Shown in pieces: positions 267 through 17,927 of a stretch of DNA of 17,927 nucleotides. Numbering within the stretch: the stretch's first letter is position 1; every line of letters begins with the position of its first letter. The DNA comes from a virus. Taxonomy: Duplodnaviria; Heunggongvirae; Uroviricota; Caudoviricetes. The DNA lies in the IMG/VR virus record IMGVR_UViG_2585427748_000008, positions 1 to 17,927 of that record. The stretch is one strand, 5' to 3'. The notes beneath the pieces were generated by a model that was not told the origin of the DNA, made no database searches, and saw only the letters and a program-made list of their open reading frames with translations. The position numbers and the translations under genes are program-made.

Positions 267-331
267 AATAAGTCCTCACTATATTAAGATATTCAGTGAT
301 GAGATAAATAATCAGTTAATTAAGAACGATA

Positions 332-1376: not shown

Positions 1377-1396
1377 AATTGATGTTGAGGTAGGGG

Positions 1397-2997: not shown

Positions 2998-4139
2998 ATA
3001 GTTTAACGGCAAATAACCGTTTGTCGCAACAGCTGGTGGTCAGCGTCGCTGAACACCTGTTGTTACGGCATGAATGCAGATTACCAAATCACCTGGCTGT
3101 AAGTAACCACAGAGAACTTTACCTGACTGTGGGGGGCGAGTTGTGCAGGAACTTAACCGCTGGTTTCGTGACGGAAGAGGGCTTTATGTCCATGTTATTC
3201 GTTGGGAGCCAGAAACACAGCGCGTTATCTATCTTCGCAAAGACTACCCGCATGAGTGCTTTAGTCCTTTGTGGAAATTCAGGCGTGATTTTGTTGAGTG
3301 TGAAGGACCACCAGCATATTGATTCTGCAATTCCGGGACGTTACACTGTTCAGGCACCTTATAAAGCGGGTGCCGGGATTGGCGTCCTGAAATTCGCACA
3401 TGCGCATAACCGCGCTTCAGCGGTTTTTTTGCGCACGTTTCCTCACATCCAAATTATGGTGGGGCGTGCAGGGGCATCGAAAGATGCGCCGGGGTCATGT
3501 GCGACCGGTTACGCCAACCCTGTACGTCTCACCACCTCTGTGATTGGCGTCCCATGTGGTGAGTTTTCAAAATTCGCACATGAGGATGTCACTATGGCAA
3601 CCACCCCTACCCAAACTCACCCTAAAATTGATGTTATCCATGGGAAGGCTGTTACCTCTTCTTTGGCCGTTGCCGAATATTTCTGCAAGCAGCACAAAAA
3701 CGTTATTCAAAAAATCCAGACGCTTGAGTGCTCTGTTGAATTCACTGAGCTGAATTTTCAGCCCAGTGATTACACCGATTGCACAGGCCGCAAACTCCCT
3801 TGTTACCAAATCACCCGCGACGGTTTTGCGTTTCTTGCCATGGGCTTCACGGGGAAACGTGCTGCCCGGTTCAAAGAGGCATACATCAATGCCTTTAACC
3901 AGATGGAGAAACAGCTTTCAAATCCCTCTGTACTGAGCGACGTTGCACATAACGCCAGCGTTCTCTATTCCTACATTTCATCAATTCATCAGGTCTGGCT
4001 GCAGCAGCTTTATCCCATGTTGGCAAAAGCCGAATCCCCGCTGGCTGTAAGTCTGTATGACCGCATCAACGACGCGGCGCTACTGGCCAGTCTCATAAAT
4101 TTGTCGCTGAACCCTTCAGAGGTAAGGGGGCGCAAATGA
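2994..4139 (+). CDS. Rha-family phage regulatory protein; Rha domain in the C-terminal ~182 aa, with a likely independent start at 3594
   Basis: Frame is open for 381 codons from an ATG overlapping the upstream stop (ATGA). Residues from 3594 (MATTPTQTHPKIDVIHGKAVTSSLAVAEYFCKQHKNVIQKI...) look like a Rha N-terminus and have GAGGA 7 nt upstream. Coding status of 2994-3593 is uncertain (see findings). Confidence 0.6.
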   Translation: MNSLTANNRLSQQLVVSVAEHLLLRHECRLPNHLAVSNHRELYLTVGGELCRNLTAGFVTEEGFMSMLFVGSQKHSALSIFAKTTRMSALVLCGNSGVILLSVKDHQHIDSAIPGRYTVQAPYKAGAGIGVLKFAHAHNRASAVFLRTFPHIQIMVGRAGASKDAPGSCATGYANPVRLTTSVIGVPCGEFSKFAHEDVTMATTPTQTHPKIDVIHGKAVTSSLAVAEYFCKQHKNVIQKIQTLECSVEFTELNFQPSDYTDCTGRKLPCYQITRDGFAFLAMGFTGKRAARFKEAYINAFNQMEKQLSNPSVLSDVAHNASVLYSYISSIHQVWLQQLYPMLAKAESPLAVSLYDRINDAALLASLINLSLNPSEVRGRK

Positions 4140-4360
4140 TCCGGAATATTTTCAAACGGTTTACCAATCATACTTTCCGTTGTCCTCGTCCGGGTCAGTG
4201 GTACACCACGCCTGCAGGGCATGTTCTACGTGTTAGCCTGGTTGACCGTGAATGTCAGAAGGTGATTTGTGAACCGCTGGGCCGTAATTACCGCATCAGT
4301 ATGCCGCTTATAGCCTTTTGCTCCGGAAAAAACATGAAGCATCTCGGAGGTGCAGCATGA
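4136..4360 (+). CDS. Small hypothetical protein (74 aa, Cys-containing), translationally coupled
   Basis: ATG overlaps the Rha stop (ATGA) and its own stop overlaps the next ATG (ATGA at 4357-4360); no recognisable family. Confidence 0.4.
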   Translation: MIRNIFKRFTNHTFRCPRPGQWYTTPAGHVLRVSLVDRECQKVICEPLGRNYRISMPLIAFCSGKNMKHLGGAA

Positions 4361-5175
4361 GTATGGAGCTGATGGTTAAAGCGATGAAAATTCGAGTGGG
4401 TAATCCATTGCGAAAACTGGTTCTGATCAAGCTGGCTGATAATGCCAGCGATCAGGGTGAGTGCTGGCCCAGCTACCAGCATATTGCTGACCAGTGCGAG
4501 ATTAGCAAACGTTCTGTGATGAATCATATTGCGGCCCTTTGTGAGTCCGGGCTGGTAAAAAAAGTCACCCGGAAAGGTGAAAAAGGTAACTCAAGTAATA
4601 TCTATCTCCTTCATCTTGATGGTGCAGGAGATTCACTAGGGGGTAGTGCAAATAATTCACTATCTGGTGCAGCAAATTCACCAGGTAGTGCAGGAGTTGC
4701 ACCAGGGGGTGGTGCAGGAGATTCACCCAGAACCAGTCACTCTTTTGAACCAGTCAAAGAACCAGTCAATGAACCAATAGCTGTTGGTGCATCTGCTGAT
4801 GAGTCTGTGCGAGTTCGTTCAAACCGACCGGAATACTCTCCGGAGTTTGAGCAGGCATGGCTGGCATACCCCAAACGTGCTGGTGGCAATTCAAAATCTG
4901 CAGCCTTCAAAGCCTGGAAAGCCCGTTTGAATGAGGGGGTAAAACCCGAAACCATGCTGGAAGGTGTGAAACGCTACGCGGGCTGGGTATCTGCGATGGG
5001 TAACAGCGGCACACAATTTGTGAAACAGGCTGTCACGTTCTTTGGTCCGGATCGTCATTTCGAAGAATCCTGGGAAGTTCCTGCGGTATCTGCAGCCAGA
5101 CGCGAGGACCCGTACTTCAAAGCCAGTTACGACAACGTGGACTACAGCCAGATCCCGGCAGGATTCAGGGGGTGA
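4357..5175 (+). CDS. Replication initiator, lambda O-like (N-terminal HTH, replisome-organiser-type C-terminus)
   Basis: ATG 6 nt after GGAGG; N-terminal HTH-like segment (LIKLADNASDQGECWPSYQHIADQCEISKRSVMNHIAALCESGLV); the gene contains an in-frame iteron array as in the lambda O gene. Confidence 0.7.
   Translation: MSMELMVKAMKIRVGNPLRKLVLIKLADNASDQGECWPSYQHIADQCEISKRSVMNHIAALCESGLVKKVTRKGEKGNSSNIYLLHLDGAGDSLGGSANNSLSGAANSPGSAGVAPGGGAGDSPRTSHSFEPVKEPVNEPIAVGASADESVRVRSNRPEYSPEFEQAWLAYPKRAGGNSKSAAFKAWKARLNEGVKPETMLEGVKRYAGWVSAMGNSGTQFVKQAVTFFGPDRHFEESWEVPAVSAARREDPYFKASYDNVDYSQIPAGFRG
4621..4778. repeat. Iteron array (putative phage replication origin) inside the O-like gene
   Basis: About five ~22-bp units built on GGTGCAGGAGATTCAC (exact copies at 4621-4636 and 4711-4726, variants between), followed by three GAACCAGTCA repeats at 4730-4770. 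Confidence 0.55.
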
Positions 5176-5177
5176 TC

Positions 5178-5666
5178 ATGAGTCTTTTGAATGAAGTTCA
5201 GAAATTCATTGAAGCCCATCCGGGGTGTACTTCCGGAGACATTGCGGATGCTTTTGCAGGTTACTCACGGCAGCGCGTTCTGCAGTCAGCAAGCAAGTTA
5301 CGTCAGAGTGGGCGTGTGGCTCACCGTTGTGAAGGAGATACACGCAGACATTTCCCGCGCCTGACTGAGAGAGCACAGGAGCCGGAACCACAACCAGTTC
5401 GTGAAACCAGACCTGTGCGCAATTTCTGTGTCGGCACTAACGACCCGCAGGTGATTTTGTGCCTGACTCGCCAGGCGGAAGAACTGGAGTCCAGGGGCTT
5501 ATTCCGTCGAGCTGCAACGGTGTGGATGGAGGCATTCCGTGAAAGCCACTCCCAGCCAGAACGAAACAATTTTCTGGCGCATCGTGAGCGGTGCTTACGG
5601 AAAAGCAGCAAGCGCGCTGCATCGGGTGAAGAGTGGTATCTGTCAGGGAATTACGTGGGGGCTTAA
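5178..5666 (+). CDS. PerC-family (Pch-like) transcriptional regulator with N-terminal extension
   Basis: ATG 3 nt after the O-like stop with G-rich RBS; C-terminal segment RGLFRRAATVWMEAFRE resembles the GLWRRAA..W motif I associate with PerC/Pch regulators (from memory). Confidence 0.5.
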   Translation: MSLLNEVQKFIEAHPGCTSGDIADAFAGYSRQRVLQSASKLRQSGRVAHRCEGDTRRHFPRLTERAQEPEPQPVRETRPVRNFCVGTNDPQVILCLTRQAEELESRGLFRRAATVWMEAFRESHSQPERNNFLAHRERCLRKSSKRAASGEEWYLSGNYVGA

Positions 5667-6319
5667 TGAGTAATAAATATTGCCAGGCGCTGGTGGAGCT
5701 GCGGAACAAACCAGCCCATGAACTGAAGGAAGTGGGCGATCAGTGGCGCACGCCGGACAACATTTTCTGGGGAATTAACACCCTGTTTGGCCCGTTTGTT
5801 CTGGATCTGTTCACTGATGGTGATAACGCCAAATGTGCCGCTTATTACACTGCGGAAGACAACGCGCTGGCGCATGACTGGTCTGAACGTCTTGCGGAGC
5901 TTAAAGGTGCTGCCTTTGGTAATCCCCCGTACAGCCGCGCCAGTCAGCATGAGGGGCAATACATCACCGGCATGCGTTACATCATGAAACATGCCAGTGC
6001 CATGCGTGATAAAGGCGGGCGCTATGTTTTCCTGATCAAAGCTGCCACCAGCGAAGTGTGGTGGCCGGAAGATGCAGATCATATTGCTTTTATTCGCGGG
6101 CGTATTGGTTTTGAACTGCCTGCCTGGTTTATCCCGAAAGACGAAAAGCAGGTGCCAACAGGTGCTTTCTTCGCTGGTGCTATTGCTGTTTTCGACAAGA
6201 CCTGGAAGGGACCGGCAATCAGCTACATAGGGCGCGATGAACTTGAGGCATGTGGTGAGGCGTTTCTGGCGCAGGTTCGCCAGCAGGCGGAAAAACTGGT
6301 CAGGGAGATGGCGGCATGA
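5666..6319 (+). CDS. Phage DNA N6-adenine methyltransferase (Dam-type)
   Basis: ATG overlaps the upstream stop (TAATG); contains the FGNPPY motif typical of N6-adenine methyltransferases; 217 aa. Confidence 0.85.
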   Translation: MSNKYCQALVELRNKPAHELKEVGDQWRTPDNIFWGINTLFGPFVLDLFTDGDNAKCAAYYTAEDNALAHDWSERLAELKGAAFGNPPYSRASQHEGQYITGMRYIMKHASAMRDKGGRYVFLIKAATSEVWWPEDADHIAFIRGRIGFELPAWFIPKDEKQVPTGAFFAGAIAVFDKTWKGPAISYIGRDELEACGEAFLAQVRQQAEKLVREMAA

Positions 6320-6642
6320 CGACGTTAACTCAATGCCAGCAGCAGGTGCTGGATATGCTGATTTCTTATCAGAAAGAACGTGGCTTCCCGCCAACCAATC
6401 AGGAGGTGGCAACCATGCTGGGATACCGTTCGGTGAATGCAGCGGTGGAGCATCTTCGCGCACTGGAGAAAAAAGGCGTCATCACGATAAAGCGTGGCGT
6501 GGCCCGGGGGATAACGCTTCATACTGCGATGAAGGACGACGACAGCGAGGCGGTCGGGATTATCCGCGCACTGCTTGCCGGTGAGGAAAACGCAAGGCTG
6601 CGTGCAACCCACTGGTTACATGAGAGGGGCCTGAAAGTATGA
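6316..6642 (+). CDS. LexA N-terminal-domain-like DNA-binding protein (no peptidase domain)
   Basis: ATGA-coupled start; 108-aa ORF with winged-helix-like QQVLDMLISYQKERGFPPTNQEVATMLGYRSVNAAVEHLRALEKKGVI. Confidence 0.6.
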   Translation: MTTLTQCQQQVLDMLISYQKERGFPPTNQEVATMLGYRSVNAAVEHLRALEKKGVITIKRGVARGITLHTAMKDDDSEAVGIIRALLAGEENARLRATHWLHERGLKV

Positions 6643-7034
6643 AGCTAATACTGCCTTTTCCGCCCAGCGTGAACACGTACTGGCGACACCCCAACAAAGG
6701 GGCGTTTGCTGGTAAGAGCCTGATAAGCGCGGCGGGGCGAAAATTCCAGAGCGCGGCGTGTGCAGCAATAGTTGAGCAGTTACGTCGTCTGCCGAAACCA
6801 ACGTCGGCACCTGCTTCAGTGGAGATCGTGTTGTTTCCTCCGGATAACCGGATCCGCGATCTGGACAACTATAACAAGGCGCTGTTTGACGCCCTGACCC
6901 ACGCGGGTGTGTGGGAAGACGACAGTCAGGTGAAAAGAATGCTGGTGGAGTGGGGACCGGTTATCCCGGAGGGGAAGGTCGAGATCACTATCAGTAAGTA
7001 CGAAAAAGCGAGTTGCAAATTAGCAACTCGGTAA
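6639..7034 (+). CDS. rusA: Holliday-junction resolvase RusA
   Basis: ATGA-coupled start; 131-aa sequence MKLILPFPPSVNTYWRH...DLDNYNKALFDALTHAGVWEDDSQV matches the RusA family pattern (from memory). Confidence 0.9.
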   Translation: MKLILPFPPSVNTYWRHPNKGAFAGKSLISAAGRKFQSAACAAIVEQLRRLPKPTSAPASVEIVLFPPDNRIRDLDNYNKALFDALTHAGVWEDDSQVKRMLVEWGPVIPEGKVEITISKYEKASCKLATR

Positions 7035-7196
7035 CGGAATTGAGCAACACCCTAAATTTGGGTATTACCTCGTTAAAGATACTGTATTTATGAACAGTGT
7101 ATCCTTGATAACTATTAAAAATCGCAGTAAGTTCATCCTGCATCAACGAAAAGGGAGTGCAGTCCCGCTCGTGGATAAAAATTTGTGGAGAAACCA

Positions 7197-8012
7197 ATGA
7201 ATCAGTTGCTTGTAATTGATGGCGTTTCTGTGCGCCAGTACTTCGAATCTAACTACTGTCTTAACGACCTTCAGAAAGCTGCTCTTCTTGCCGCTGGTGA
7301 GAATCGCTCCTCCCGTTCGCTGGAAGTTCACGAGTTTATGCGTCGTCCTGAAACGAAGGCTCTTGTGGAATTATTGGAAGAAGAAACTACGGGAGATTCC
7401 CGTAGTATTCCTGTCATCACCATTCAGGGGCGCAATGGTGGGACGTATGTCTGTAAAGAGCTGGTCTATGCATATGCAATGTGGATCAGCCCGGCATTCA
7501 GCTTAAAAGTGATACGTACTTTTGATGCGCTTCATAATTCATCACCAGAAGAAACCACATCCGACAAAATTAAATCCGGGGTCATTCTGCTTGAATCAGC
7601 AGCAAAGACTCTAAATCTGTCAAACTCCTCGAAACTTGGTGCATACCAGAAATTATCAAAGGTAGCTGGTCTTCCTGAACTTATGCCGATCTATGCCATT
7701 GATGCACCTGCTGATGCGCCAGATGGTTCAAGCCGCCCTACGCTGTCGCTGAGTGCACTGCTGAAGCAGTATGGTATCCGCCTGACGGCTAATCAGGCAT
7801 ATCACCAGATGGCGAAGCTGGGGATCGTTGAACAACGCGAACGATACAGCCGTACCGCGATTAACAACATCAAAAAATTCTGGTCGCTGACCGCGAAAGG
7901 CTGCATGTTCGGCAAGAACATCACCAGTCCTGCAAATCCGCGCGAGACGCAGCCGCATTTCTTCGAATCCCGATTTCCTGAGCTGTTAAAGCTGCTCGAT
8001 ACCGTTCATTGA
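7197..8012 (+). CDS. KilA-N domain protein (antirepressor-like)
   Basis: ATG with GGAG 6 nt upstream (track start 7185 is an upstream GTG); N-terminal KilA-N-like region (TYVCKELVYAYAMWISPAFSLKVIRTFD). Confidence 0.8.
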   Translation: MNQLLVIDGVSVRQYFESNYCLNDLQKAALLAAGENRSSRSLEVHEFMRRPETKALVELLEEETTGDSRSIPVITIQGRNGGTYVCKELVYAYAMWISPAFSLKVIRTFDALHNSSPEETTSDKIKSGVILLESAAKTLNLSNSSKLGAYQKLSKVAGLPELMPIYAIDAPADAPDGSSRPTLSLSALLKQYGIRLTANQAYHQMAKLGIVEQRERYSRTAINNIKKFWSLTAKGCMFGKNITSPANPRETQPHFFESRFPELLKLLDTVH

Positions 8013-8013
8013 G

Positions 8014-9009
8014 GTGACTGTGAGAGCACTACTGACCCCTGAAATTGCCCCGCGTATGGGGATCGTATTGTTCAGGCCAGGTTCAGAGCTGATGCCCCTG
8101 TTTATGCAGGGGCGTGTCCTGCTGGAGCCTGAGCCGGAGCGTTATTCATCTTTCGCCAGTGGTGCCGTTCCGGCGGCATCACAACCGCTGGCGGATGATC
8201 CTGCCGTTCGGGCCGTGTTCCGCCATGAGGCAGTGATCCGTCGTGCTGGTGGCGTGGAATGTCTTGAAAGCTGGTTACTTCGTGAAAAAGGCTGCCAGTG
8301 GCCTCATTCCGGATGGCACAGCGAGAACATGACCACAATGCGACACGCTCCGGGTGCAATCCGTCTGTGCTGGCACTGCGATAACCAGCTGCGCGATCAG
8401 TTCACGGAACGGCTGGAATCAATGGCAACGGATAACTGTGCCCGCTGGGTGTTGTCTGTTGTGCGTCGGGATCTCGGTTTTGATGACAGTCACGTTGTGA
8501 CAATGCCGGAACTGTGCTGGTGGCTGATTCGTAATGACCTGGCGGATGCCTTACCGGAAAGTGCAGCCCGTAAGGCACTGAGATTACCGAAGCCTGTTGT
8601 GCCGTCTGTCACCCGGGAAAGTGACCTTGTGCCTTCGGTTCCTGCCACCAGCATCATCCAGGATAAAGCGAAAAAGGTGCTGGCGCTGAAAGTGGATCCG
8701 GAGTCGCCGGAGTCTTTTATGTTACGCCCCAAACGTCGCCGCTGGGTTAATGAAAAGTACACGCGCTGGGTTAAGACGCAGCCGTGTGCATGTTGTGGAA
8801 AGCCTGCTGATGATCCCCACCATCTGATAGGCCACGGTCAGGGGGGAATGGGTACAAAAGCGCATGATCTCTTTGTGTTGCCTTTGTGCAGAAAGCATCA
8901 CGACGAGCTGCATGCGGATACCGTGGCATTTGAAGAGAAGTATGGCTCCCAGCTGGAGTTGATATTTCGTTTTATCGATCGTGCGCTGGCAATTGGTGTG
9001 CTGGCCTGA
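8014..9009 (+). CDS. DUF968-like prophage protein (Cys/His-rich HNH-like C-terminus)
   Basis: 331-aa ORF; C-terminal CACCGKPADDPHHLIGHGQGGMGTKAHDLFVLPLCRKHHDELH; start codon uncertain (GTG 8014, GTG 8020 or ATG 8056). Confidence 0.7.
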   Translation: MTVRALLTPEIAPRMGIVLFRPGSELMPLFMQGRVLLEPEPERYSSFASGAVPAASQPLADDPAVRAVFRHEAVIRRAGGVECLESWLLREKGCQWPHSGWHSENMTTMRHAPGAIRLCWHCDNQLRDQFTERLESMATDNCARWVLSVVRRDLGFDDSHVVTMPELCWWLIRNDLADALPESAARKALRLPKPVVPSVTRESDLVPSVPATSIIQDKAKKVLALKVDPESPESFMLRPKRRRWVNEKYTRWVKTQPCACCGKPADDPHHLIGHGQGGMGTKAHDLFVLPLCRKHHDELHADTVAFEEKYGSQLELIFRFIDRALAIGVLA

Positions 9010-9026
9010 TTTTGTGGAGAAAGTTG

Positions 9027-9383
9027 ATGCGTGATATGTATGAAGTAATGGATCGTTGGGGAGCTTGGGCTGCTTCAGACAATAGCGGAGTGGACTGGCA
9101 GCCGATAGCGGCTGGTTTCAAGGGACTTTTACCTCATGGCAAAAAGTCACGGATTCAGTGTGATGATGACGAAGGCATCATGATAGACAGTTGTGTGGCT
9201 CGGTTGAGAAGGTATAAACCAGAGGAATATGAGCTCATCATCGCCCACTTTGTTATCGGTATCTCATTACGTACTATTGCGAAGAAGAGAAAATGCTCTG
9301 ATGGCACAATTAGGAAGGAACTGCAAACTGCAATGGGGTTTGTTGACGGCTGTTTAGCAATGTTAGCTTATAGTATGGCATAA
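9027..9383 (+). CDS. Q: Late-gene antiterminator Q (phage 82/21-type family)
   Basis: ATG with GGAGA 6 nt upstream (track start 9012 is an upstream TTG); MRDMYEVMDRWGAWAA...WQPIAAGFKGLLP...CSDG pattern typical of this Q family (from memory); last gene of the nin-like region. Confidence 0.75.
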   Translation: MRDMYEVMDRWGAWAASDNSGVDWQPIAAGFKGLLPHGKKSRIQCDDDEGIMIDSCVARLRRYKPEEYELIIAHFVIGISLRTIAKKRKCSDGTIRKELQTAMGFVDGCLAMLAYSMA

Positions 9384-10577
9384 AAAATAAAATAGATTTA
9401 CTGCCGATTTTTCAAAAAAGACTGGGAACTGTTTATATCCAACGTAAATAAGGCCTCCATAAAACATGGCTGATGCGAGATATTTAACAGTTCTCATCCT
9501 TTTTTTAGCTTTATCAATCAAACCTGTAATGCTACTCTTAATACTATCTGCATTATCTTTGATTTCTTTATTTTCTTCAAACTTTAAATACTTATCGAAA
9601 GCGGACTCCACTCGAGAACGTAAGTTGTCGAATGTTTCATTGAATATCTCAATAGAAATGTAATTGACTTTTTTTATCATCCAAAGTCCTGCGATAATCA
9701 ATATTGCTTCGGTTGTTTCATTAGCCTTCACTAAGCCACCAGCAGCTATTAATGCACCGGGAATAGTCAATGCTTTTGTCTGATTAGATGATATGAATTC
9801 GTTAATTTTACTCGTGAACTCAAGATTTTTCTCATCGAGTTCGTTAAGAATTTTATTTACAGAAAACCTCTTTGTGTAAATCTCATATAGTTCATCATAT
9901 TTTTTCCTGACGAGTTCAGTAGAGTTAAGCAAGTCAAAGAAATTGAACGTACCATTTGCTTTAAATACTTCGTTTATGGCTGAGCGTATAACGAGCTTGC
10001 GCTCGCTTTTGTGTAAATCATTGATTTTTATTGTGTCGAGAAGCTCCTTTATAATTTCATATTTAAGAGACGAGTTCGATAAGCGATTAATCTCGCTATA
10101 TTGTAAAAAATGCGTGAGTTCGACTGTATAACTTTTGTCTTCATTGGTGAAAAATAAGACAGAGCAGTCACTGTTATGATGATCAGCAATTAATGAAAGG
10201 ATATCTTTCCACATAAAGAAAATATGGATTTTTTCGATGCTTTCATTCTTAGAAGTAGGGAGTATTAACGGCGTTCCGATGATATAATTTTTCGGAAGAG
10301 CGTTTTGGGTGTTTACTCTAGACCAAAAAGACTCAACATTCTCATAAATTATAGCGTCATCCCAAGATGAAGCTTGGCGATCTAGCCAAATTTCATTATT
10401 TTCGATGCAGGTTGTTGCCTTTTTATAACCTATAGATTGTAACAGTCTAATTATTTCAGAACTATTTACAATAACAATGCTTTCTTCAAGACTTATGACA
10501 GTGTAGTAGCCCTCAACTCTGCTTGAGGCTCCGTTAATAATCTGCGCTAATCTTGATAAGTCATCAGCAATTGTCAT
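9363..10577 (-). CDS. Hypothetical protein with hydrophobic C-terminal segments (predicted membrane protein); second gene of an AT-rich cassette
   Basis: 404-aa ORF; start 2 nt after the stop of the upstream cassette gene; hydrophobic stretches ALTIPGALIAAGGLV...AILIIAGLWMI and YLASAMFYGGLIYVGY; sampled GC ~28-42% versus ~58% in flanks; 3' end overlaps the Q 3' end by 21 nt. Confidence 0.7.
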   Translation of the reverse strand: MTIADDLSRLAQIINGASSRVEGYYTVISLEESIVIVNSSEIIRLLQSIGYKKATTCIENNEIWLDRQASSWDDAIIYENVESFWSRVNTQNALPKNYIIGTPLILPTSKNESIEKIHIFFMWKDILSLIADHHNSDCSVLFFTNEDKSYTVELTHFLQYSEINRLSNSSLKYEIIKELLDTIKINDLHKSERKLVIRSAINEVFKANGTFNFFDLLNSTELVRKKYDELYEIYTKRFSVNKILNELDEKNLEFTSKINEFISSNQTKALTIPGALIAAGGLVKANETTEAILIIAGLWMIKKVNYISIEIFNETFDNLRSRVESAFDKYLKFEENKEIKDNADSIKSSITGLIDKAKKRMRTVKYLASAMFYGGLIYVGYKQFPVFFEKSAVNLFYFLCHTIS

Positions 10578-10579
10578 TA

Positions 10580-11755
10580 TTAGCTGTCTCTATATCTTTT
10601 GAGTTCATCATAATTTGCCTGACTCAATTTTATCACAATTTCGCATTTGTTGTCAGTGAGAATTACAGGCTTATTTGACTTTTCGTCTCCAATAGCTCCA
10701 CGCATTATTTTCAACTTAAAATTATTGTCGTTATCTGCCACTTCAATTGTAAGCGCGCTTTCAGCTGCTTTAGGAGTTGGTTCAAATTGAGGGTCAATCT
10801 GGAAACCATTAAGATTAACAAAATCGACAAACGTTCCCTTACATTTGTGTGAATCAGTCAGGCATGAGTCAATTATTTTTGAAATATCCTCTATCTTAAC
10901 GGACTTATTTCCGTGTTTATCTTTTGATTTTTTTTCCAGTAAGGATTTAACTTCATTGTCAATAGTATCACGCAGTACACGACCGAGTGAGTTTTTACTA
11001 GCAAAAATATCTATAGCACTGAATAATTGCTGAATGCTTCTTTTATTGTCCGAATCATGTCGGCAACCTAATGAGTCTTTGAAAAAATCGCTTTTAGATT
11101 TACCTTGCAAGAAATGTACATATGAGTCACCCTTGTTTTCTGGATAACTGGCTTCGAATAAAGTTAAATCGAACATCGCAGCCTGCCGTAAGGCATCGGT
11201 ATTAATTGGATTTAATCTTGTTGGGGTCAACTTATCCGAATCAAAGTCATAGGCGCTTTGTTTATCAACCATTACGATTAGAAGTTTCCCCAAATCCTCT
11301 GGTTCGGTAGACTTATAGTGGATGAAAACAACGCTCCCCCCCTGAAGTTGGGCAACTCTCGATTCGTTATTAGCATTATGTTTAAGCTTCTCTATTATAG
11401 CTCTAGATAAATCAATGAATTCATTATTTTTATTAATGTATTTTTTTAGGATCGTAGGAATGGATGAAGGGTTGTGATCTGAGTCTAGGAAGTTATGAAA
11501 TTTGTTTTTTCGGCTAAATTTTTTCTCAATTCTGGTTATGAATTCAGATGTGACTTCATTTTTTAGATCCCAAACTTCACCTAATCGATAATCAAATGCT
11601 CTTGAATCATTTTTTTCAAGATTTGCTGTTACAGCACCAATAGGAAAGTACGATTGTTTGCCCAGCACTACAACATGAGGCGTGGCACCGCATTTATCGC
11701 AAGCTACAGTTGGGTCGTCAAGAACATTGCCACATTCTAAACAAGTTATATCCAT
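10580..11755 (-). CDS. Hypothetical protein with N-terminal CxxC-X10-CxxC zinc ribbon and NdpA/YejK-like (NA37) region; first gene of the cassette
   Basis: 391-aa ORF; Cys at residues 5, 8, 19 and 22 (CLECGNVLDDPTVACDKCG); GGSVVFIHYKS and YVHFLQGKSKSDFFKDSLG resemble motifs I recall from nucleoid-associated protein NdpA (unverified); a TATAAT hexamer lies about 12 nt upstream of the ATG on the minus strand. Confidence 0.7.
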   Translation of the reverse strand: MDITCLECGNVLDDPTVACDKCGATPHVVVLGKQSYFPIGAVTANLEKNDSRAFDYRLGEVWDLKNEVTSEFITRIEKKFSRKNKFHNFLDSDHNPSSIPTILKKYINKNNEFIDLSRAIIEKLKHNANNESRVAQLQGGSVVFIHYKSTEPEDLGKLLIVMVDKQSAYDFDSDKLTPTRLNPINTDALRQAAMFDLTLFEASYPENKGDSYVHFLQGKSKSDFFKDSLGCRHDSDNKRSIQQLFSAIDIFASKNSLGRVLRDTIDNEVKSLLEKKSKDKHGNKSVKIEDISKIIDSCLTDSHKCKGTFVDFVNLNGFQIDPQFEPTPKAAESALTIEVADNDNNFKLKIMRGAIGDEKSNKPVILTDNKCEIVIKLSQANYDELKRYRDS

Positions 11756-11875
11756 TATATATCCCGAATTATAAGAATGAATTTTTATGTGGCTGAAAAT
11801 TCTATCAAAACACTAACGCGTACGCAAAAAGTATTGTATTGTGTTAAGAGTGGTTACTTCGCCACACAACTTAAC

Positions 11876-11897
11876 CCCGCCACTGAGCGGGTTTTTT
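11876..11897 (+). terminator. Intrinsic terminator-like hairpin (CCCGC-CACTGA-GCGGG followed by TTTTTT); candidate tR'-type site
   Basis: 5-bp GC stem 11876-11880 / 11887-11891 followed by a 6-T run; lies in the non-coding stretch between the cassette promoter side and the FaeA-like gene. Confidence 0.4.
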
Positions 11898-12021
11898 GTA
11901 CCTGTAAACTTGGTGCAGTACAGTAAACACGCTGGTGGTCGTGAATACTGGCTTTTTATCTTGCTGGCTTTTTAGACAAGAGTTATTGGTATGTCACGTT
12001 AACCGGAAAGGGTAAAAAGAC

Positions 12022-12219
12022 ATGCTGAAACAGCAGGATATGACAGAAACCGCCAGAGTTGTGTTTGATGAATTAAGCGTTACCGAACCGGCGACAGTCG
12101 GGGAGATTGCGCAGAATACTTACCTTTCACGCGAACGCTGCCAGTTAATACTGACCCAGCTTGTTATGGCGGGTCTGGCAGACTATCAGTGCGGTTGTTA
12201 CAGACGCCTTCAGTCCTGA
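12022..12219 (+). CDS. Small winged-helix regulator, FaeA/PapI-like
   Basis: 65-aa ORF; TVGEIAQNTYLSRERCQLILTQLVMAGLADYQ resembles PapI/FaeA-type wH proteins (from memory); its stop is embedded in a strong terminator hairpin. Confidence 0.5.
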   Translation: MLKQQDMTETARVVFDELSVTEPATVGEIAQNTYLSRERCQLILTQLVMAGLADYQCGCYRRLQS

Positions 12220-12232
12220 AGGCTTTTTATTT
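12206..12232 (+). terminator. Rho-independent terminator after the FaeA-like gene
   Basis: 7-bp stem GCCTTCA/TGAAGGC with loop GTCC (12206-12223) followed by TTTTTATTT. Confidence 0.55.
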
Positions 12233-12353
12233 GTGGTGAATGGGCGGCTGGTGGGGGGGCGACACCTGTCAGTCCTTTGCTTATGTGTTGATGATAATTT
12301 ACCTTTTGGGGCTATAATTGAGCTAACCAATTGCTAATGAAAGTAAAATTATA

Positions 12354-13067
12354 ATGGCTGTTGTCTGTTCAGTTATCATGGTTTGCTCCCCAATTAATAT
12401 TTTTCTTGAAAAGGATACGTTGTCACTTAAGCCAGGCTCAGTTGTTCTGGCCACCAAATGCATCAGGGAGCTTTTCCTTATGCATTATGGCAAAGTTAAA
12501 ATTGTCGATATAAGCGAATCCGTCGTAAGTCAATATCTGGAAAGTCAGCATAAGCTGACGAGGACTCGTCTGACTGACATTCCGCTTTACCTGTTGCTGG
12601 AACCCAACAATCCTGCGTTGGCTGCGGCTTTAATTACCAGCCAGGGATTTTCCGGAGAGGCCACGGATATGTTTCTTATGATGGCCTGCCTGTCTCTGTT
12701 TGAAACAGATGAACGGATGTCATTGTTTTTAAGTGGATGTTTATCCAGCATAAGTGCCAAAGTCAGGGCGATAATTCAGACAGATATATCAGCAAGCTGG
12801 ACGCTTGGTGCGATTGCTCTACAGTTGCATATGAGTGAGAGTTTGTTAAAGACAAAACTGAAAAATGAAGGGGGCATGTTCAGTCGCTTGTTGCTGGAAG
12901 AGCGGATGCGTGTTGCTGTAAATATGTTATGTTCCCGGCATGGATATGGACAGGCTATAGCAGAAAAATGCGGTTATTCAAGCAGGTCCTACTTTATTTC
13001 TGTATTTCACCGCTATTATGGCTTCCCGCCAGACAGATATGTATCCAGGCAAGGGCTTGATTATTGA
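12354..13067 (+). CDS. AraC-family transcriptional regulator (AppY/GadX-like prophage regulator)
   Basis: 237-aa ORF with C-terminal AraC-type HTH (WTLGAIALQLHMSESLLKTKLK...AIAEKCGYSSRSYFISVFHRYYGFPP); a TATAAT hexamer sits at 12314-12319 upstream. Confidence 0.8.
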   Translation: MAVVCSVIMVCSPINIFLEKDTLSLKPGSVVLATKCIRELFLMHYGKVKIVDISESVVSQYLESQHKLTRTRLTDIPLYLLLEPNNPALAAALITSQGFSGEATDMFLMMACLSLFETDERMSLFLSGCLSSISAKVRAIIQTDISASWTLGAIALQLHMSESLLKTKLKNEGGMFSRLLLEERMRVAVNMLCSRHGYGQAIAEKCGYSSRSYFISVFHRYYGFPPDRYVSRQGLDY

Positions 13068-13095
13068 TTTTCATCTGATTATTATTTTTTGGCTC

Positions 13096-13171
13096 GGCCC
13101 TTTAGCTCAGTGGTGAGAGCGAGCGACTCATAATCGCCAGGTCGCTGGTTCAAATCCAGCAAGGGCCACCA
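13096..13171 (+). tRNA. ileZ: tRNA with CAT anticodon (Ile2-lysidine type or Met), 3' CCA encoded
   Basis: Manual fold: 7-bp acceptor GGCCCTT/AAGGGCC, D-arm TAGCTCAGTGGTGAGAGC, anticodon loop CTCATAA, T-arm CTGGTTCAAATCCAG, discriminator A then CCA. Symbol given by analogy to the ileZ-argN-argO cluster of Stx phages. Confidence 0.85.
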
Positions 13172-13178
13172 TCACATA

Positions 13179-13252
13179 CCGCCATTAGCTCATCAGGAAA
13201 GAGCGCCAGCCTTCGAAGCTGGTTGCGCGGAGTTCGGGTCCCCGAAGGCGGT
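13179..13252 (+). tRNA. argN: tRNA-Arg-like (anticodon TCG), aberrant: one acceptor-stem and one T-stem mismatch, no encoded CCA
   Basis: Manual fold: acceptor CCGCCAT/AAGGCGG (6 of 7 pairs), D-stem GCTC/GAGC, anticodon stem CCAGC/GCTGG with loop CTTCGAA, T-arm CGGAG-TTCGGGT-CCCCG (4 of 5 pairs). Confidence 0.6.
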
Positions 13253-13268
13253 TCATTATCTGTATCCT

Positions 13269-13345
13269 GCGTTGTTAGCTCAGCCGGACAGAGCAATTGC
13301 CTTCTAAGCAATCGGTCACTGGTTCGAATACAGTAGAACGCGCCA
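13269..13345 (+). tRNA. argO: tRNA-Arg (anticodon TCT), with one acceptor-stem and one T-stem mismatch; CCA encoded
   Basis: Manual fold: acceptor GCGTTGT/AGAACGC (6 of 7), D-arm TAGCTCAGCCGGACAGAGC, anticodon stem ATTGC/GCAAT with loop CTTCTAA, T-arm ACTGG-TTCGAAT-ACAGT (4 of 5), discriminator G then CCA. Confidence 0.75.
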
Positions 13346-13360
13346 CACTTATTTTCCCTG

Positions 13361-13384
13361 GCTCGCTTTTGCGGGCTTTTTTTT
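13361..13384 (+). terminator. Intrinsic terminator after the tRNA cluster
   Basis: GCTCGC-TTTT-GCGGGC hairpin (6 bp including one G-U) followed by an 8-T run. Confidence 0.6.
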
Positions 13385-13833
13385 AAATGTCTCACAATTC
13401 AGGCGGTTGACTGTTGTCTGGTTTGCGGGGAGTTTGTTAAAAGAAACTGGCATGGTGAATCCCCCTGTGCGGAGGGGCAATCAGCGAGTAGGTATATGGG
13501 ATAATCGCGGATTCAGGTGCTGGTACTGAATTCACCGGGAGGCACCCGGCACCATGCAATGGCACATAGTGCCACTCTCCAGCCCCTCTCCGGAGGGGCT
13601 TTCTTATGGACAAAAAAAGCCCGCGCAGGGAGACGCGGGCGGCAAGGAATAAACAACAAAACGTGAAGTAATATTTCAGCTGGCGAATAATATCCGACAG
13701 TAATCACTCTGCGCAATAGCGCGGCCTTTTTCGTATTGCGGGCTGTTGTCTATCTTCTGCCATTGTCCTGTAACTTCCGGACTTCAGCCCGCTCCTCATT
13801 TTACTCACAATATTATCCAGGCCGGGAGGATTC

Positions 13834-15795
13834 ATGGCATTTAAACACTATGACGTGGTCAGGGCGGCGTCGCCGTCAGACCTTGCGGAGCGACTGACAC
13901 AAAAACTGAAGGAGGGGTGGCAGCCATTTGGCAGTCCGGTGGCCATCACGCCTTATACCCTGATGCAGGCCATTGCGGCGGAAGGTGATGTCACCACACC
14001 TGTGGTGGTGAAGCCGTCGGATGGAGAAGGCGCAGTTATCAGCACCACCAGCAACCCGGAGTATTACTTTGTTGTTGCCCTGGCCGGGCAGTCAAACGGT
14101 ATGGCGTATGGTGAAGGGCTTCCGCTGCCGGAGACATATGACCGTCCGGACCCGCGTATTAAACAGCTGGCGCGTCGCAGCACTGTCACGCCGGGTGGTG
14201 CGTCCTGTAACTACAATGACATTATTCCTGCGGACCACTGCCTGCATGATGTTCAGGATTTGAGTAAGTTTTCACACCCGAAAGCTAGCGCAGCTCAGTA
14301 TGGATGCGTGGGGCAGGGATTACATATCGCGAAGAAATTGTTGCCGTTTATTCCGGCGAATGCCGGTATTCTTCTGGTTCCGTGCTGCCGTGGTGGTTCT
14401 GCATTTTTGGCGGGCGATGAAGGTACCTTCAGCGAATCCACCGGCGCAAGCGAGACCTCGGCACGCTGGGGTGTAGATAAGCCACTGTACAAGGACCTGC
14501 TTACCCGTACTCAGGCCGCACTGAAGGCTAACCCTAAAAATATTCTGCTTGCAGTGGTCTGGATGCAGGGCGAGTTTGATTTGAAACAGGGTGCATACGC
14601 CACTCAGCCGGGGCTGTTTGATTCCATGGTGGAAAAATATCGTTCTGACCTGTCGGAATTCGGAGGTCAGTGTCTCGGGGGCTCTCCGTCATCGGTTCCC
14701 TGGATTTGTGGCGACACGACCTACTACTGGAAGCAGACTTATTCTTCGCAATACGATGCGGTGTATGGTGCATACAAGACGAAATCCGCAAAAAAAATCT
14801 TCTTTGTGCCGTTTATGACGGATGAAAACGGGCGAAATGTGGGTACCAACGAGCCGTCAGAAGATCCGGATGTTGCGGATATTGGGTATTACGGAGCCGG
14901 TGGTCGAACGGACGCCAAAACCTGGACGACGGCCGACCGTAAAACGCATTTTGGATCATGGGCACGTCGTGGGATTATTTCCGACCGTCTGGCAACGGCG
15001 ATTCTTGTGCATGCCGGGAGAACCGCTGAATTCATTACCGGAAAACAGCCTGATACGGTGAAGCCCACCGGACCTTCCGGTGAAGGTACGGAGAGAGAGC
15101 CGGAAGCCCCGGTCAGTAACCGAACCCTGATGAGTCTGCTGGCGTCCGGCGAAGACCTGGCATCACAGGGCTGGCGCTATTATCACAAACCGGCGAGCGG
15201 AGACAATGTTAACAAAAACATTGCTGAAGCGGTGGTCAGTGATGCGGGGGCTACGGGAGGTAAGGCCCTGCAACTGAATAAACCGGAAAACCACATCTGG
15301 TTTCTGGAGCATGATGCAGCCGGACAGGGAGTGGAGTTACTGAAGAAGGGGGGACGTGTGAGCGTACGGTTTAAGTTGCCGGGTTCACTGGTGCCGAATC
15401 GGTTTGCCCTGGGCATTTACTGGCAGTTGTCGTCCCTGCCGGAGGGAGTGACGCTGGCAGAGGAAGGCAACGACATGCTGATGTCCTTCTTCCTGCAGAC
15501 GGATGCGACGAACCTGAACGCGATGTACCACAAGAAGCCGAATGCGAAGCTGGATACGTTCGGGGTCTTTGATAACGGATGGCACACACTGGCTTTTGAG
15601 TTTGCCGGAAACAACAGCATTCAGGTGACGCCGGTACTGGATGAGAAACGGGGGACGCCGTTCACACTGGTGAAATCTCCGGCATCAGGGGCGGCGGACA
15701 AACTGCAACTGACAGGCATATCAAAGGCGGCGACATATACGCTGCTGATTGACAGTGTGAAGGTGGAAGTGAACAACGCGGATGCCGCGGCATGA
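13834..15795 (+). CDS. nanS-p: Prophage sialate O-acetylesterase NanS-p (N-terminal DUF1737-like region, SASA/SGNH esterase core, C-terminal extension)
   Basis: 653-aa ORF with GGGAGGA RBS; the AGQSNG motif (FVVALAGQSNGMAYGEG) is typical of the sialate O-acetylesterase catalytic site; sits where nanS-p lies downstream of stx in Stx phages. Confidence 0.85.
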   Translation: MAFKHYDVVRAASPSDLAERLTQKLKEGWQPFGSPVAITPYTLMQAIAAEGDVTTPVVVKPSDGEGAVISTTSNPEYYFVVALAGQSNGMAYGEGLPLPETYDRPDPRIKQLARRSTVTPGGASCNYNDIIPADHCLHDVQDLSKFSHPKASAAQYGCVGQGLHIAKKLLPFIPANAGILLVPCCRGGSAFLAGDEGTFSESTGASETSARWGVDKPLYKDLLTRTQAALKANPKNILLAVVWMQGEFDLKQGAYATQPGLFDSMVEKYRSDLSEFGGQCLGGSPSSVPWICGDTTYYWKQTYSSQYDAVYGAYKTKSAKKIFFVPFMTDENGRNVGTNEPSEDPDVADIGYYGAGGRTDAKTWTTADRKTHFGSWARRGIISDRLATAILVHAGRTAEFITGKQPDTVKPTGPSGEGTEREPEAPVSNRTLMSLLASGEDLASQGWRYYHKPASGDNVNKNIAEAVVSDAGATGGKALQLNKPENHIWFLEHDAAGQGVELLKKGGRVSVRFKLPGSLVPNRFALGIYWQLSSLPEGVTLAEEGNDMLMSFFLQTDATNLNAMYHKKPNAKLDTFGVFDNGWHTLAFEFAGNNSIQVTPVLDEKRGTPFTLVKSPASGAADKLQLTGISKAATYTLLIDSVKVEVNNADAAA

Positions 15796-15930
15796 TAAAA
15801 AAAGCCGCCAGCGGCAGGAACGGAAGCTGGCGGAGGGAATCCCAATGGAGAATGTAAAGAAAAGATGCTTTCGTATATCGGTTTTTTAAATGAAAACAGT
15901 TCTCATTGTCAACCATAACGGTAAGAAACT

Positions 15931-16125
15931 ATGACATTTATTCATCAGGTGATGCTGTACTTCTGTACGGCGGTCTGTGTGCTGTATCTTCTTTCGGGTG
16001 GGTACAGGGCAGTGCGCGATTTCTGGCGCAGGCAGATTGATAAAAGGGCCGCAGAGAAAATCAGCGCCAGTCAGTCAGCCGGAGCAAAAACAGAAGCCCC
16101 ACTCATTCCGGAACAACCTTCTTAA
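15931..16125 (+). CDS. Small hypothetical protein with one hydrophobic segment (64 aa)
   Basis: ORF only; hydrophobic VMLYFCTAVCVLYLLSGGY; weak RBS; no family recognised. Confidence 0.3.
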   Translation: MTFIHQVMLYFCTAVCVLYLLSGGYRAVRDFWRRQIDKRAAEKISASQSAGAKTEAPLIPEQPS

Positions 16126-16285
16126 TAACCCATTTCAACGAGAAAATCCTATGTCAGAAATAAAATCGCTGGTCACTGCTGAGGCAGTGAAGGAAGTTCT
16201 GCGCTCTGAAGAAGTCCGGAGCGCACTGAAACGTAACCGGCTCATTTAAACCGTCTGGTCTGTTTCCTCCGGCTCTACAAAAATA

Positions 16286-16963
16286 ATGTCCATCATTTTT
16301 AATGGACACTATCGTATGAAACACCGGACCTGGATCACTGAAGCTTTACGTCTTCACTTTGAAGAACATTTACCCCGGGTTGTGGCCGGGCGTCGCCTGG
16401 GTGTACCAAAATCAACAGTTTGTAGTATGTTCGTGCGCTTTCGGAGAGCTGGCCTTTCGTGGCCTTTGCCCGCAGGCATGTCGGAGCAGGAACTTGATGC
16501 CTGCCTTTACGGACAATTTTCCACGGTACCAGTCGTACGTCCTGAAAGCACCGTTATATCCGAAGCCCCCGTGGTAAAAAAACGTCCCCGGCGGCCCAAC
16601 TTCCCTTATGAGTTTAAAATCGCCTTAGTGGAGCAGTCACTGCAGCCCGGAGCCTGTGTGGCGCAGATCGCCCGGGAAAACGGAATCAACGATAACCTGC
16701 TCTTCAACTGGCGCCATCAATACCGGAAAGGTGGCCTGCTGCCTTCCGGAAAAAATATGCCGGCACTGCTTCCCGTGACGTTAACGCCGGAGCCGGATAA
16801 TAAAATCCCGGCCCCCGCACAGGAACCAGAGCAGATAAATACACCGTCCGACAGTCTGTGTTGTGAGCTGGTTCTGCCGGCCGGAACTCTCAGGCTTAAA
16901 GGTAAACTGACGCCGGCGTTATTACAGACACTTATCCGCGAAATAAAAGGGAGCAGCCACTGA
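16286..16963 (+). CDS. tnpA: IS66-family accessory protein TnpA (orf1)
   Basis: 225-aa ORF (alternative ATG at 16316) with HTH-like segment (RRLGVPKSTVCSMFVRFRRAGL); immediately precedes and overlaps the tnpB start. Confidence 0.8.
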   Translation: MSIIFNGHYRMKHRTWITEALRLHFEEHLPRVVAGRRLGVPKSTVCSMFVRFRRAGLSWPLPAGMSEQELDACLYGQFSTVPVVRPESTVISEAPVVKKRPRRPNFPYEFKIALVEQSLQPGACVAQIARENGINDNLLFNWRHQYRKGGLLPSGKNMPALLPVTLTPEPDNKIPAPAQEPEQINTPSDSLCCELVLPAGTLRLKGKLTPALLQTLIREIKGSSH

Positions 16964-17310
16964 TGATATCTCTCCCTGCAGGTTCGCGTATCTGGCTGGT
17001 TGCAGGTATCACCGATATGCGAAATGGCTTTAACGGCCTGGCATCAAAAGTTCAGAACGTCCTGAAGGATGACCCGTTCTCCGGACACCTGTTCATCTTC
17101 CGCGGACGCCGGGGTGACCAGATAAAAGTGTTGTGGGCTGACAGTGACGGACTGTGCCTCTTCACCAAACGCCTGGAGCGGGGCCGCTTCGTCTGGCCAG
17201 TCACCCGTGACGGCAAGGTGCACCTTACTCCGGCTCAGTTATCCATGCTTCTTGAAGGTATCAACTGGAAGCACCCGAAACGAACGGAACGCGCTGGAAT
17301 CCGCATATAA
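16963..17310 (+). CDS. tnpB: IS66-family TnpB (orf2)
   Basis: 115-aa ORF MISLPAGSRIWLVAGITDMRNGFNGLA...; size and sequence pattern typical of IS66 Orf2 (from memory); start overlaps the tnpA stop. Confidence 0.9.
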   Translation: MISLPAGSRIWLVAGITDMRNGFNGLASKVQNVLKDDPFSGHLFIFRGRRGDQIKVLWADSDGLCLFTKRLERGRFVWPVTRDGKVHLTPAQLSMLLEGINWKHPKRTERAGIRI

Positions 17311-17329
17311 CCCGTTGTAAAGTGAGGAT

Positions 17330-17927
17330 ATGGACACCTCACTTGCTCATGAGAACGCCCGCCTGCGGGCACTGTTGCAGACGCAACAGGACACCATCCG
17401 CCAGATGGCTGAATACAACCGCCTGCTCTCACAGCGGGTGGCGGCTTATGCTTCCGAAATCAACCGGCTGAAGGCGCTGGTTGCGAAACTGCAACGTATG
17501 CAGTTCGGTAAAAGCTCAGAAAAACTTCGTGCAAAAACCGAACGGCAGATACAGGAAGCACAGGAGCGAATCAGCGCACTTCAGGAAGAAATGGCGGAAA
17601 CGCTGGGTGAGCAATATGACCCGGTACTGCCATCCGCCCTGCGCCAGTCTTCAGCCCGTAAACCGTTACCGGCCTCACTTCCCCGTGAAACCCGGGTTAT
17701 CCGGCCGGAAGAGGAATGCTGTCCTGCCTGTGGTGGTGAACTCAGTTCTCTGGGATGTGATGTGTCAGAGCAACTGGAGCTTATCAGCAGCGCCTTTAAG
17801 GTTATCGAAACACAACGTCCGAAACAGGCCTGTTGCCGGTGCGACCATATCGTGCAGGCACCAGTACCTTCAAAACCCATTGCACGCAGTTATGCCGGAG
17901 CGGGGCTTCTGGCCCATGTTGTCACCG
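17330..17927 (+). CDS. tnpC: IS66-family transposase TnpC, N-terminal part only (runs off the window end)
   Basis: ATG preceded by GAGGA; open frame to the window end (MDTSLAHENARLRALLQ...; coiled-coil-like N-terminus then CPACGGEL...CCRC zinc-finger-like motif); absent from the ORF track because no stop lies in the window. Confidence 0.85.
   Translation, partial: MDTSLAHENARLRALLQTQQDTIRQMAEYNRLLSQRVAAYASEINRLKALVAKLQRMQFGKSSEKLRAKTERQIQEAQERISALQEEMAETLGEQYDPVLPSALRQSSARKPLPASLPRETRVIRPEEECCPACGGELSSLGCDVSEQLELISSAFKVIETQRPKQACCRCDHIVQAPVPSKPIARSYAGAGLLAHVVT

Follow-up and report, generated by a model that had tools for sequence, protein, structure and literature searches.

The DNA analysed here, referred to throughout as the window, is the whole 17,927-nucleotide (nt) stretch at positions 1 to 17,927 of the IMG/VR virus record IMGVR_UViG_2585427748_000008. 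Our subject is the part of it in which three transfer RNA (tRNA) genes are followed, across an interval of 488 bp (13346-13833), by nanS-p, a prophage sialate O-acetylesterase gene. In Shiga toxin (Stx)-converting phages a 1.3-kb stx cassette lies within this layout; judged from the aligned sequences, it is cleanly missing from the window and has left no scar. The best explanation, to which as a whole we give a probability of about 0.87, is that the window is a lambdoid, Shiga-toxin-free prophage of O104:H4-lineage Escherichia coli seen in its late-operon 'moron' zone, and that the region is made up of interchangeable modules, with the tRNA module and a small RNA (sRNA) module joined directly and the slot between them simply unoccupied. 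This arrangement is already known and very common, toxin-free lambdoid prophages with the tRNA cluster and nanS-p having been on record ever since EDL933 and Sakai were sequenced. The sole mildly new item is the RNA variant proposed below at the position of AsxR, which existing models miss.

The unoccupied slot

Both flanks of the slot are homologous to the stx2 locus of phage 933W. On the left, window 13092-13383 is 92% identical to positions 1617-1909 of that locus, which comprise ileZ-argN-argO and a terminator, and the 3' half of argO together with the terminator is 96.8% identical to Stx2c phages. On the right, the match to 933W is taken up again at window 13388, where the aligned 933W DNA begins 42 nt past the stxB2 stop codon. 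Between these two flanks 933W carries 1,335 bp (the stx promoter region, stxA2, stxB2 and ~40 nt) which have no counterpart in the window. Since the tRNA module ends at 13383 and post-stxB DNA begins at 13388, the cassette is missing as a unit. Among the matches listed, every Stx2 phage ceases to match at 13383, and in phages without the tRNAs (PhiR5_1, for example) the match begins at 13380, so that the modules meet within a shared T-run.

The original prediction of a layout like that flanking stxAB, but with an empty toxin slot, is therefore confirmed on both sides, whilst the residual stx flank or deletion scar sought by alignment to 933W is absent, the junction at 13383/13388 being seamless. 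When the whole window was searched for stx remnants, with the 933W cassette by blastn (word size 7, E ≤ 10) and with StxA2 and StxB2 by tblastn, only chance matches (E at least 0.4) were returned, and none at all fell within 13346-13833. Thus, of the genes that define a Stx-converting phage, stxA and stxB, the window has neither; the features of a lambdoid late region (Q, pR'/tR', ileZ-argN-argO, nanS-p and the genes for lysis, all pointing the same way) are present. A deletion through direct repeats was also considered, as ATCTG can be seen by eye near both ends of the 933W cassette, and was rejected: a 5-mer is too short, and the junction lies in a common T-run.

The tRNA calls withstood a formal scan. 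Exactly three tRNA genes were found by ARAGORN in the whole window, all of them matched by the Rfam tRNA model, and the order found is the predicted one of CAT, TCG and TCT anticodons followed by nanS-p. The CAT gene is labelled Met by ARAGORN; the identical gene is tRNA-Ile in annotations by the Prokaryotic Genome Annotation Pipeline (PGAP), and its homologue in the 933W record is ileZ. The acceptor stem pairs are G1-C72, G2-C71, C3-G70, C4-G69 and C5-G68, which match the determinants recognised by TilS; the gene may thus encode a lysidine-modified isoleucine tRNA rather than a methionine tRNA. From the three anticodons in order, the terminator and the 933W homology, we identify the cluster by sequence as the ileZ-argN-argO phage tRNA cluster. 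Its terminator is homologous to the 'terminator upstream of the stx genes' of 933W, where a putative tRNA promoter, pT, is annotated at a distance from the tRNAs equivalent to that of the candidate promoter in the window (Table 1).

The empty junction is widespread. A 191-bp probe spanning 13380-13388, scored where contiguous, was present in 1,077 of 5,426 complete E. coli genomes (about 20%), many of them O157:H7, and in 10 phage records, including the non-Stx phage Nil3 at 98.4%. The 2-kb block running from the AraC-family gene through the tRNAs and the interval into nanS-p was contiguous in 624 genomes, one of them that of the reference strain EDL933, a non-Stx prophage of which matches at 95.8%. 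In a sample of 121 occurrences of the sRNA core among the matches listed in IMG/VR, the tRNA module abutted directly in 36, stx was present in 6 and other cargo separated the tRNAs from the RNA in 41; the rest had no tRNA module in the available DNA (31) or were too short for classing (7). The other cargo comprises a TerB-family gene with a 54-amino-acid (aa) DUF3927 peptide, a 118-aa open reading frame (ORF), a lipoprotein and an insertion sequence, to which RefSeq names add IraM. Given this range of contents, the slot is a general cargo site with many states, of which empty is the commonest. The exchange point for stx cassettes and for other cargo (TerB/DUF3927, IraM and others) is 13380-13388, and the junction is useful both for prophage typing and for judging whether a strain could gain stx by recombination.

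Cargo lying between the tRNA module and STnc100 was seen in seven IMG/VR loci. The 118-aa ORF occupies ~655 bp, and the TerB-like protein of 167 aa with the 54-aa DUF3927 membrane peptide occupies ~700-780 bp; where two small ORFs precede this pair the insert is ~1,370 bp, near the size of the stx cassette. The lipoprotein has 142 aa.

Table 1. Features of the window, in order of position
Feature	Position	Strand	Basis or detail
Late antiterminator gene Q, 118 aa	9027..9383	+	Pfam PF06530 Phage_antitermQ, E 2.7e-47; PGAP 'antiterminator Q family protein'
Inverted two-gene island, 2.4 kb, between Q and late promoter region	9363-11755	-	
Start of late transcript: homologue of 933W pR'-proximal region (qut/tR')	11842..11902	+	79% identity to 933W locus 1194-1254
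AraC-family regulator gene, cargo, directly upstream of tRNAs	12354..13067	+	Pfam HTH_AraC/HTH_18
Candidate promoter TTGATT-17-TATTAT, 11 nt upstream of first tRNA	13057..13085	+	Consensus scan only
tRNA, CAU anticodon (ileZ-type tRNA-Ile2; ARAGORN label Met)	13096..13171	+	ARAGORN; Rfam tRNA 72.5 bits, E 1.8e-14
tRNA-Arg (UCG), argN-type	13178..13254	+	ARAGORN; Rfam 43.4 bits, E 1.8e-6; 933W annotation
tRNA-Arg (UCU), argO-type	13269..13345	+	ARAGORN; Rfam 53.4 bits, E 3.2e-9; 933W annotation
Intrinsic terminator of tRNA cluster, 7-bp stem + T8	13360..13385	+	Terminator scan
Unoccupied cargo slot: junction of tRNA module and sRNA-nanS-p module	13380..13388	.	
STnc100-family sRNA	13421..13611	+	Rfam RF02076, 140.1 bits vs gathering score 47, E 2.2e-31, model 1-206 of 206
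Candidate minus-strand sRNA at AsxR position	13612..13681	-	Terminator stem 13640-13619 + T7; 5' end ~13663 or ~13681
Terminator-like hairpin 13709-13724, then nanS-p leader to 13833	13709..13731	+	Terminator scan
nanS-p, prophage sialate O-acetylesterase, 653 aa	13834..15795	+	Pfam DUF1737 + SASA + DUF6645
IS66-family element	16233-17927		ORFs 16286-16963 and 16963-17310; second has TnpB_IS66 match

The small RNA module upstream of nanS-p

The interval had been described as ~490 bp of hairpin-rich non-coding DNA, which fits what was found: there is no credible ORF in 13346-13833, and 12900-13950 holds six terminator-like sites against 1.1 ± 1.1 in shuffled sequences. The interval is, however, not spacer. 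It is a conserved sRNA module, consisting of an STnc100-family RNA and an element at the AsxR position, of the kind found downstream of stxB in all Stx phages, and this 'spacer' would be better annotated with these two elements than with pseudogenes.

The STnc100 match covers the whole covariance model. Its layout is a multi-helix core (~13451-13559), a variable tail and a terminator hairpin (13581-13600), the stretch from core to hairpin being the part that varies. Across 26 distinct cores of diverse prophages, 98.2% of cells in the core structure are paired, compared with 35-45% when the structure is slid by one to three columns, and changes on both sides of a core pair occur in 25 cells against 8.1 ± 2.4 in shuffles. 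These compensatory changes are concentrated in one helix, where they affect five of its six pairs; the remaining helices are invariant, in part because the search pattern fixed the 3' strand. The promoter scan called no promoter for STnc100, and the candidate TTGTCT-18-TGtTAAAAG at 13415-13444 was picked out by eye only.

In 372 phage records the STnc100 module follows stxB on its downstream side, and one of these records annotates it under the name STnc100. In Sakai and EDL933, EcOnc27/sRNA103, a discrete Hfq-bound RNA downstream of stx2B and next to stx2a, is STnc100 (PMC12711010), and STnc100/EcOnc27 downstream of stx2B has been detected in vesicles from E. coli that produces Shiga toxin (PMC12370729). 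STnc100 is also related to PasD, which adjoins a prophage esterase gene on its upstream side in enteropathogenic E. coli (EPEC) and which has many partners by RIL-seq (sequencing of interacting RNAs after their ligation; bioRxiv 10.64898/2026.05.13.724894). By analogy, the allele in the window is probably also a discrete, Hfq-associated RNA. As a discovery the region carries little weight, the sRNA in the gap being already an Rfam family and already reported downstream of stx2. The presence of an STnc100-family RNA does not mark a phage as Stx-converting, a point of relevance to studies tying EcOnc27/STnc100 variants to disease severity.

Partial STnc100 sequences were also seen on 130-175-kb E. 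coli plasmids, as 62-nt matches over the 5' start at ~82% identity (six entries), and three entries from Klebsiella phages have matches inside the core. Neither on the plasmids nor in the Klebsiella phages do the matches have a tRNA or nanS-p context.

The STnc100 terminator is followed at once by an A-run and then a GC hairpin, read by the terminator scan as a strong intrinsic terminator for the minus strand. In 933W the Rfam AsxR model matches the minus strand at 3485-3537 (88 bits), abutting STnc100 at 3278-3483, and the placement in the window is of the same type, with the minus-strand terminator back-to-back with that of STnc100 and upstream of nanS-p. Such pairs of plus- and minus-strand terminators, 14-21 nt apart, occur in 32 of 51 distinct variants and involve at least 15 different hairpin sequences. 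A -35-like TTGCGC at 13717-13712 is conserved in a four-way alignment and is accompanied by plausible -10 elements, called partly by eye. Identity with AsxR itself was rejected: RF02703 gave no match at E ≤ 1 in 13000-16400, nor at E ≤ 10 in 13590-13740. AsxR acts on another sRNA, FnrS, through a complementary seed; the 5' region of the element in the window differs from that of AsxR.

We therefore propose, as a tentative reading held at somewhat under even odds, that the minus-strand element is a novel sRNA gene with an AsxR-type promoter box and terminator and a different, G/U-rich single-stranded body, CGUUUUGUUGUUUAUUCCUUGCC. As the body is unlike that of AsxR, the targets would differ too. 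Its plus-strand complement, AAUAAACAACAAAAC, is C/A-rich and may resemble target sites of GcvB. The variant appears to be the common form in toxin-free prophages. If the proposal is right, STnc100 and AsxR would together form a regulatory cassette that swaps alleles and belongs to lambdoid late regions in general, not one linked to stx. Past this element, the plus-strand hairpin and nanS-p leader are well conserved, window 13709-13893 being 93.5% identical to 933W.

Weighing the explanations

That the window is toxin-free is compatible with two histories, and the original prediction had left room for both: a toxin-less relative of Stx phages, or a phage that lost the toxin. The former is the right reading, because the tRNA scans pass and both flanks match Stx-phage loci. 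Descent from a Stx-converting phage, with stxAB removed by deletion or by recombination of the flanks with a co-resident empty-slot prophage, we consider improbable. The homology of both flanks speaks for such descent, as does the AraC-tRNA module, which shares 92.5% identity with its counterpart in the Stx2k phage phiSTEC1575. Genomes of the O104:H4 lineage and of enterohaemorrhagic E. coli carry several such modules (median 2, up to 16 places per genome), which is ample substrate for exchange, and repeated loss of stx has been raised as a possibility (bioRxiv 10.64898/2026.05.13.724894). However, the window has no stx remnant and no irregular junction, and its right-flank allele was never adjacent to stx in the samples examined. 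Among the IMG/VR matches listed, identical right-flank alleles stand beside empty slots or other cargo, whereas stx2 loci are 79% identical over part of the flank only; the closest flank from a stx-bearing phage in the samples reaches 84.7%. A recent loss is thus unsupported, there being neither scar nor residual flank and the junction being a common allele, shared with Nil3 and with about a fifth of complete genomes; an ancient loss, or a replacement by recombination, keeps a low probability. In addition, the right boundary of the stx cassette varies, lying at 13388 for stx2a, stx2c and stx2d, at ~13450 for stx1 (VT1-Sakai, BP-4795) and at 13506 for stx2k, a pattern that favours multiple insertion or replacement events, independent of each other, over a single ancestor with an occupied slot. 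It is the widespread junction, the right-flank allele never found by stx and the varied boundaries that lead us to favour a toxin-less relative built from shared modules.

A different question is what the interval does. It could act solely in cis, as a stack of terminators that silences nanS-p and the lysis genes until Q antitermination, with STnc100 a structured leader. There are four terminator-like hairpins within the 488 bp, and the STnc100 element is always in the late operon, upstream of nanS-p or lysis genes. Divergent phages show hardly any variation in both strands of the closing helix and in two hairpins, an unusual trait in an sRNA that acts by base pairing, with only the 5' part of this comparison being informative owing to the search pattern. 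We nonetheless regard this as rather unlikely to be the whole function, as the discrete Hfq-bound RNA of Sakai and EDL933 (PMC12711010) comes from this position, PasD has RIL-seq partners (bioRxiv 10.64898/2026.05.13.724894), and the tail linking core and terminator, which is single-stranded, varies as a seed would be expected to. The roles of leader and sRNA are not mutually exclusive. Very much less probable is that the interval encodes small proteins. Minus-strand ORFs of 34-67 codons do exist and are annotated in some records, as a PGAP pseudogene or, in phi296, as PHANOTATE calls. However, they start with TTG or GTG and overlap structured RNA, the PGAP call is itself marked as an incomplete pseudogene, and neither length nor frame is kept among the window, 933W, phi296 and PhiR5_1. 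In the sole ORF that persists (13704-13808), nearly all the differences from 933W change an amino acid. We reject the small-protein reading because the ORFs are unconserved and the substitutions mostly non-synonymous.

The explanation by interchangeable modules implies the following model. The modules run in the order Q, inverted defence-type island, pR'/tR', TrmB-like ORF, AraC gene, tRNAs with terminator, sRNA module, nanS-p and lysis genes, and in Stx phages the stxAB cassette occupies the place between the tRNA terminator and the sRNA module. As the tRNAs and the two sRNAs have promoter-like sites and terminators of their own, they could be expressed in the lysogen, each from its own promoter. 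The tRNAs would decode AUA, AGA/AGG and CGA/CGG, codons that are frequent in neighbouring cargo genes: AUA makes up 21-37 of every 1000 codons in the AraC-family and defence/island genes next to them, and AGA in the NA37 gene and AGG in the AraC gene are each used about 20 times per 1000. After induction, RNA polymerase modified by Q at pR' would be expected to pass the terminators and go on to transcribe nanS-p and the lysis genes, just as Stx phages do; as the slot lacks stx, no toxin would be released on induction.

Several points weigh against this picture. The Q of the window belongs to another family than Q933 and is separated from pR' by the 2.4-kb inverted island, so that its action at pR' is an assumption. 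The late region is broken at 16233 by an IS66-family element, and the prophage may be defective in this strain. All of the promoters are putative calls at the level of consensus matches or by eye, the sRNA promoter having escaped the scan, and the minus-strand element goes unrecognised by the covariance model for AsxR. Lastly, the absence of a scar does not prove that the lineage was always without stx, as exchange with an empty-slot prophage leaves the same sequence.

Neighbouring genes and known systems

Upstream, the Q gene placed in the late locus by the original prediction was found as a member of PF06530, a family different from that of 933W Q. A distance of 3.7 kb separates it from the tRNAs downstream, with the inverted two-gene island, a small ORF and the AraC-family gene in between. 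The island encodes a 404-aa protein without a Pfam match and a 391-aa homologue of the nucleoid-associated protein NA37/YejK. Both genes are labelled as anti-phage proteins in recent PGAP annotation, whereas the names in the source are generic labels only, as they are for the AraC-family protein; PADLOC (2023) gave no meaningful match for the two minus-strand island genes, the AraC-family gene and the small ORF. Other strains carry other genes at the same position, namely a WYL-domain gene (cM8a) and a CPBP protease gene (EDL933), and the Q-pR' junction therefore looks like a second cargo hotspot. The DNA that follows the island is homologous to 1194-1254 of the 933W locus, which bears the annotated qut site and first terminator. 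In the window the tR'-like terminator has a stem at 11876-11891 followed by a T-run, as found by the terminator scan, and pR' itself is putative. In PhiR5_1 the DNA homologous to 11842-11902 directly follows Q.

The small TrmB-like ORF lies between the pR'/tR' region and the AraC-family gene. The latter is also present in phiSTEC1575 and in a non-Stx prophage of EDL933, and the 90% cluster of its protein has 2,285 members. It may be a prophage regulator of the PatE/Psr type, which acts on acid resistance and type III secretion.

Downstream, NanS-p aligns from end to end with the 933W esterase at 60% identity, and has the composition of this family in its usual place, with an N-terminal DUF1737, a catalytic SASA domain and a C-terminal, lectin-like DUF6645 in a prophage late region. 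The source names it both as a SASA family carbohydrate esterase and as a 9-O-acetyl-N-acetylneuraminic acid deacetylase. Activity on Neu5,9Ac2 has been shown for alleles of EDL933 and O104:H4 (PMC8065619), among which the window allele was not identified, and alleles in non-Stx prophages of both are documented (PMC8065619, PMC10462455). Right after the nanS-p stop codon, 15797-15871 on the minus strand has an A-run and a hairpin that reads as a minus-strand terminator (15817-15805), with a weak Esr41-like Rfam match (26 bits against a gathering score of 102). This element may be a convergent sRNA like those downstream of the esterase gene elsewhere (PasA/PasC/Esr41).

Over 1-16232 the window agrees at 99.975% with a prophage found in E. 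coli NCCP 13905, and over 9000-16232 several isolates from Korea agree with it fully (100%) and O104:H4 strains at 99.8%. RefSeq annotation gives the lambdoid order, with an XRE repressor, a cro-like helix-turn-helix gene, Rha, replication and nin-type genes, RusA, DUF968 and Q ahead of the region studied, and holin, lysozyme, terminase and portal past it. Divergence from NCCP 13905 starts at 16233 because of the IS66-family element, which splits a DUF826 gene between nanS-p and holin and is absent from 15 otherwise near-identical genomes. Elsewhere in the window, Rfam matches to isrK (62 bits) and C4 antisense RNA (75 bits) at 3354-3539 fall within a 381-aa ORF (2994-4139; Rha family regulator by PGAP). 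As isrK and C4 lie upstream of a shorter ant gene in phi296, the long coding sequence 2994-4139 may be over-extended.

Among the closest known systems are non-Stx lambdoid prophages of enterohaemorrhagic and enteroaggregative E. coli. A non-Stx prophage of EDL933 (NZ_CP008957.1, 1,265,954-1,267,625) is 95.8% identical over 1.67 kb, and Nil3 (AM051322) agrees at 97.7% from the tRNAs up to where its record stops (window 13787), rising to 99.3% within the interval. With these the window shares a PF06530 Q, the TrmB-like ORF, the AraC gene, tRNA-Ile/Arg/Arg, ~490 bp of non-coding DNA and a SASA esterase. It differs in having the inverted NA37 two-gene island where EDL933 has the CPBP protease gene, in the nanS-p alleles, which part after the N-terminal region, and in the IS66-family insertion at 16233.

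In the stx2 locus of 933W (NC_000924) the order is Q - pR' - ileZ-argN-argO - stxA2B2 - STnc100/EcOnc27 - AsxR - nanS-p (L0105) - S R Rz. The tRNA cluster, STnc100, back-to-back terminators, leader and nanS-p occur in the window in equal order and orientation. In contrast, the window is without stxAB (1,335 bp), its Q is of the other family, its STnc100 allele is only 71% identical, its minus-strand element is not recognisable as AsxR and its NanS-p, as noted above, is 60% identical. The Stx2k phage phiSTEC1575 (OQ243220) matches over 11876-13383, from the tR'-like terminator through the ORF, the AraC gene and the tRNAs, at 92.5%, and the match ends at the same point as in other Stx2 phages. 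Its slot is occupied by stx2k, STnc100 is reduced to the 3' half and, instead of nanS-p, there is iraM on the opposite strand. Finally, the arrangement PasD2 - sialate esterase - PasA of EPEC E2348/69 (bioRxiv 10.64898/2026.05.13.724894) likewise has an STnc100-related, Hfq-associated sRNA upstream of an esterase gene and a further sRNA downstream. The upstream RNA of the window scores as STnc100 proper, PasD being compared here by its description, whilst the downstream element is matched weakly by the Esr41-like model.

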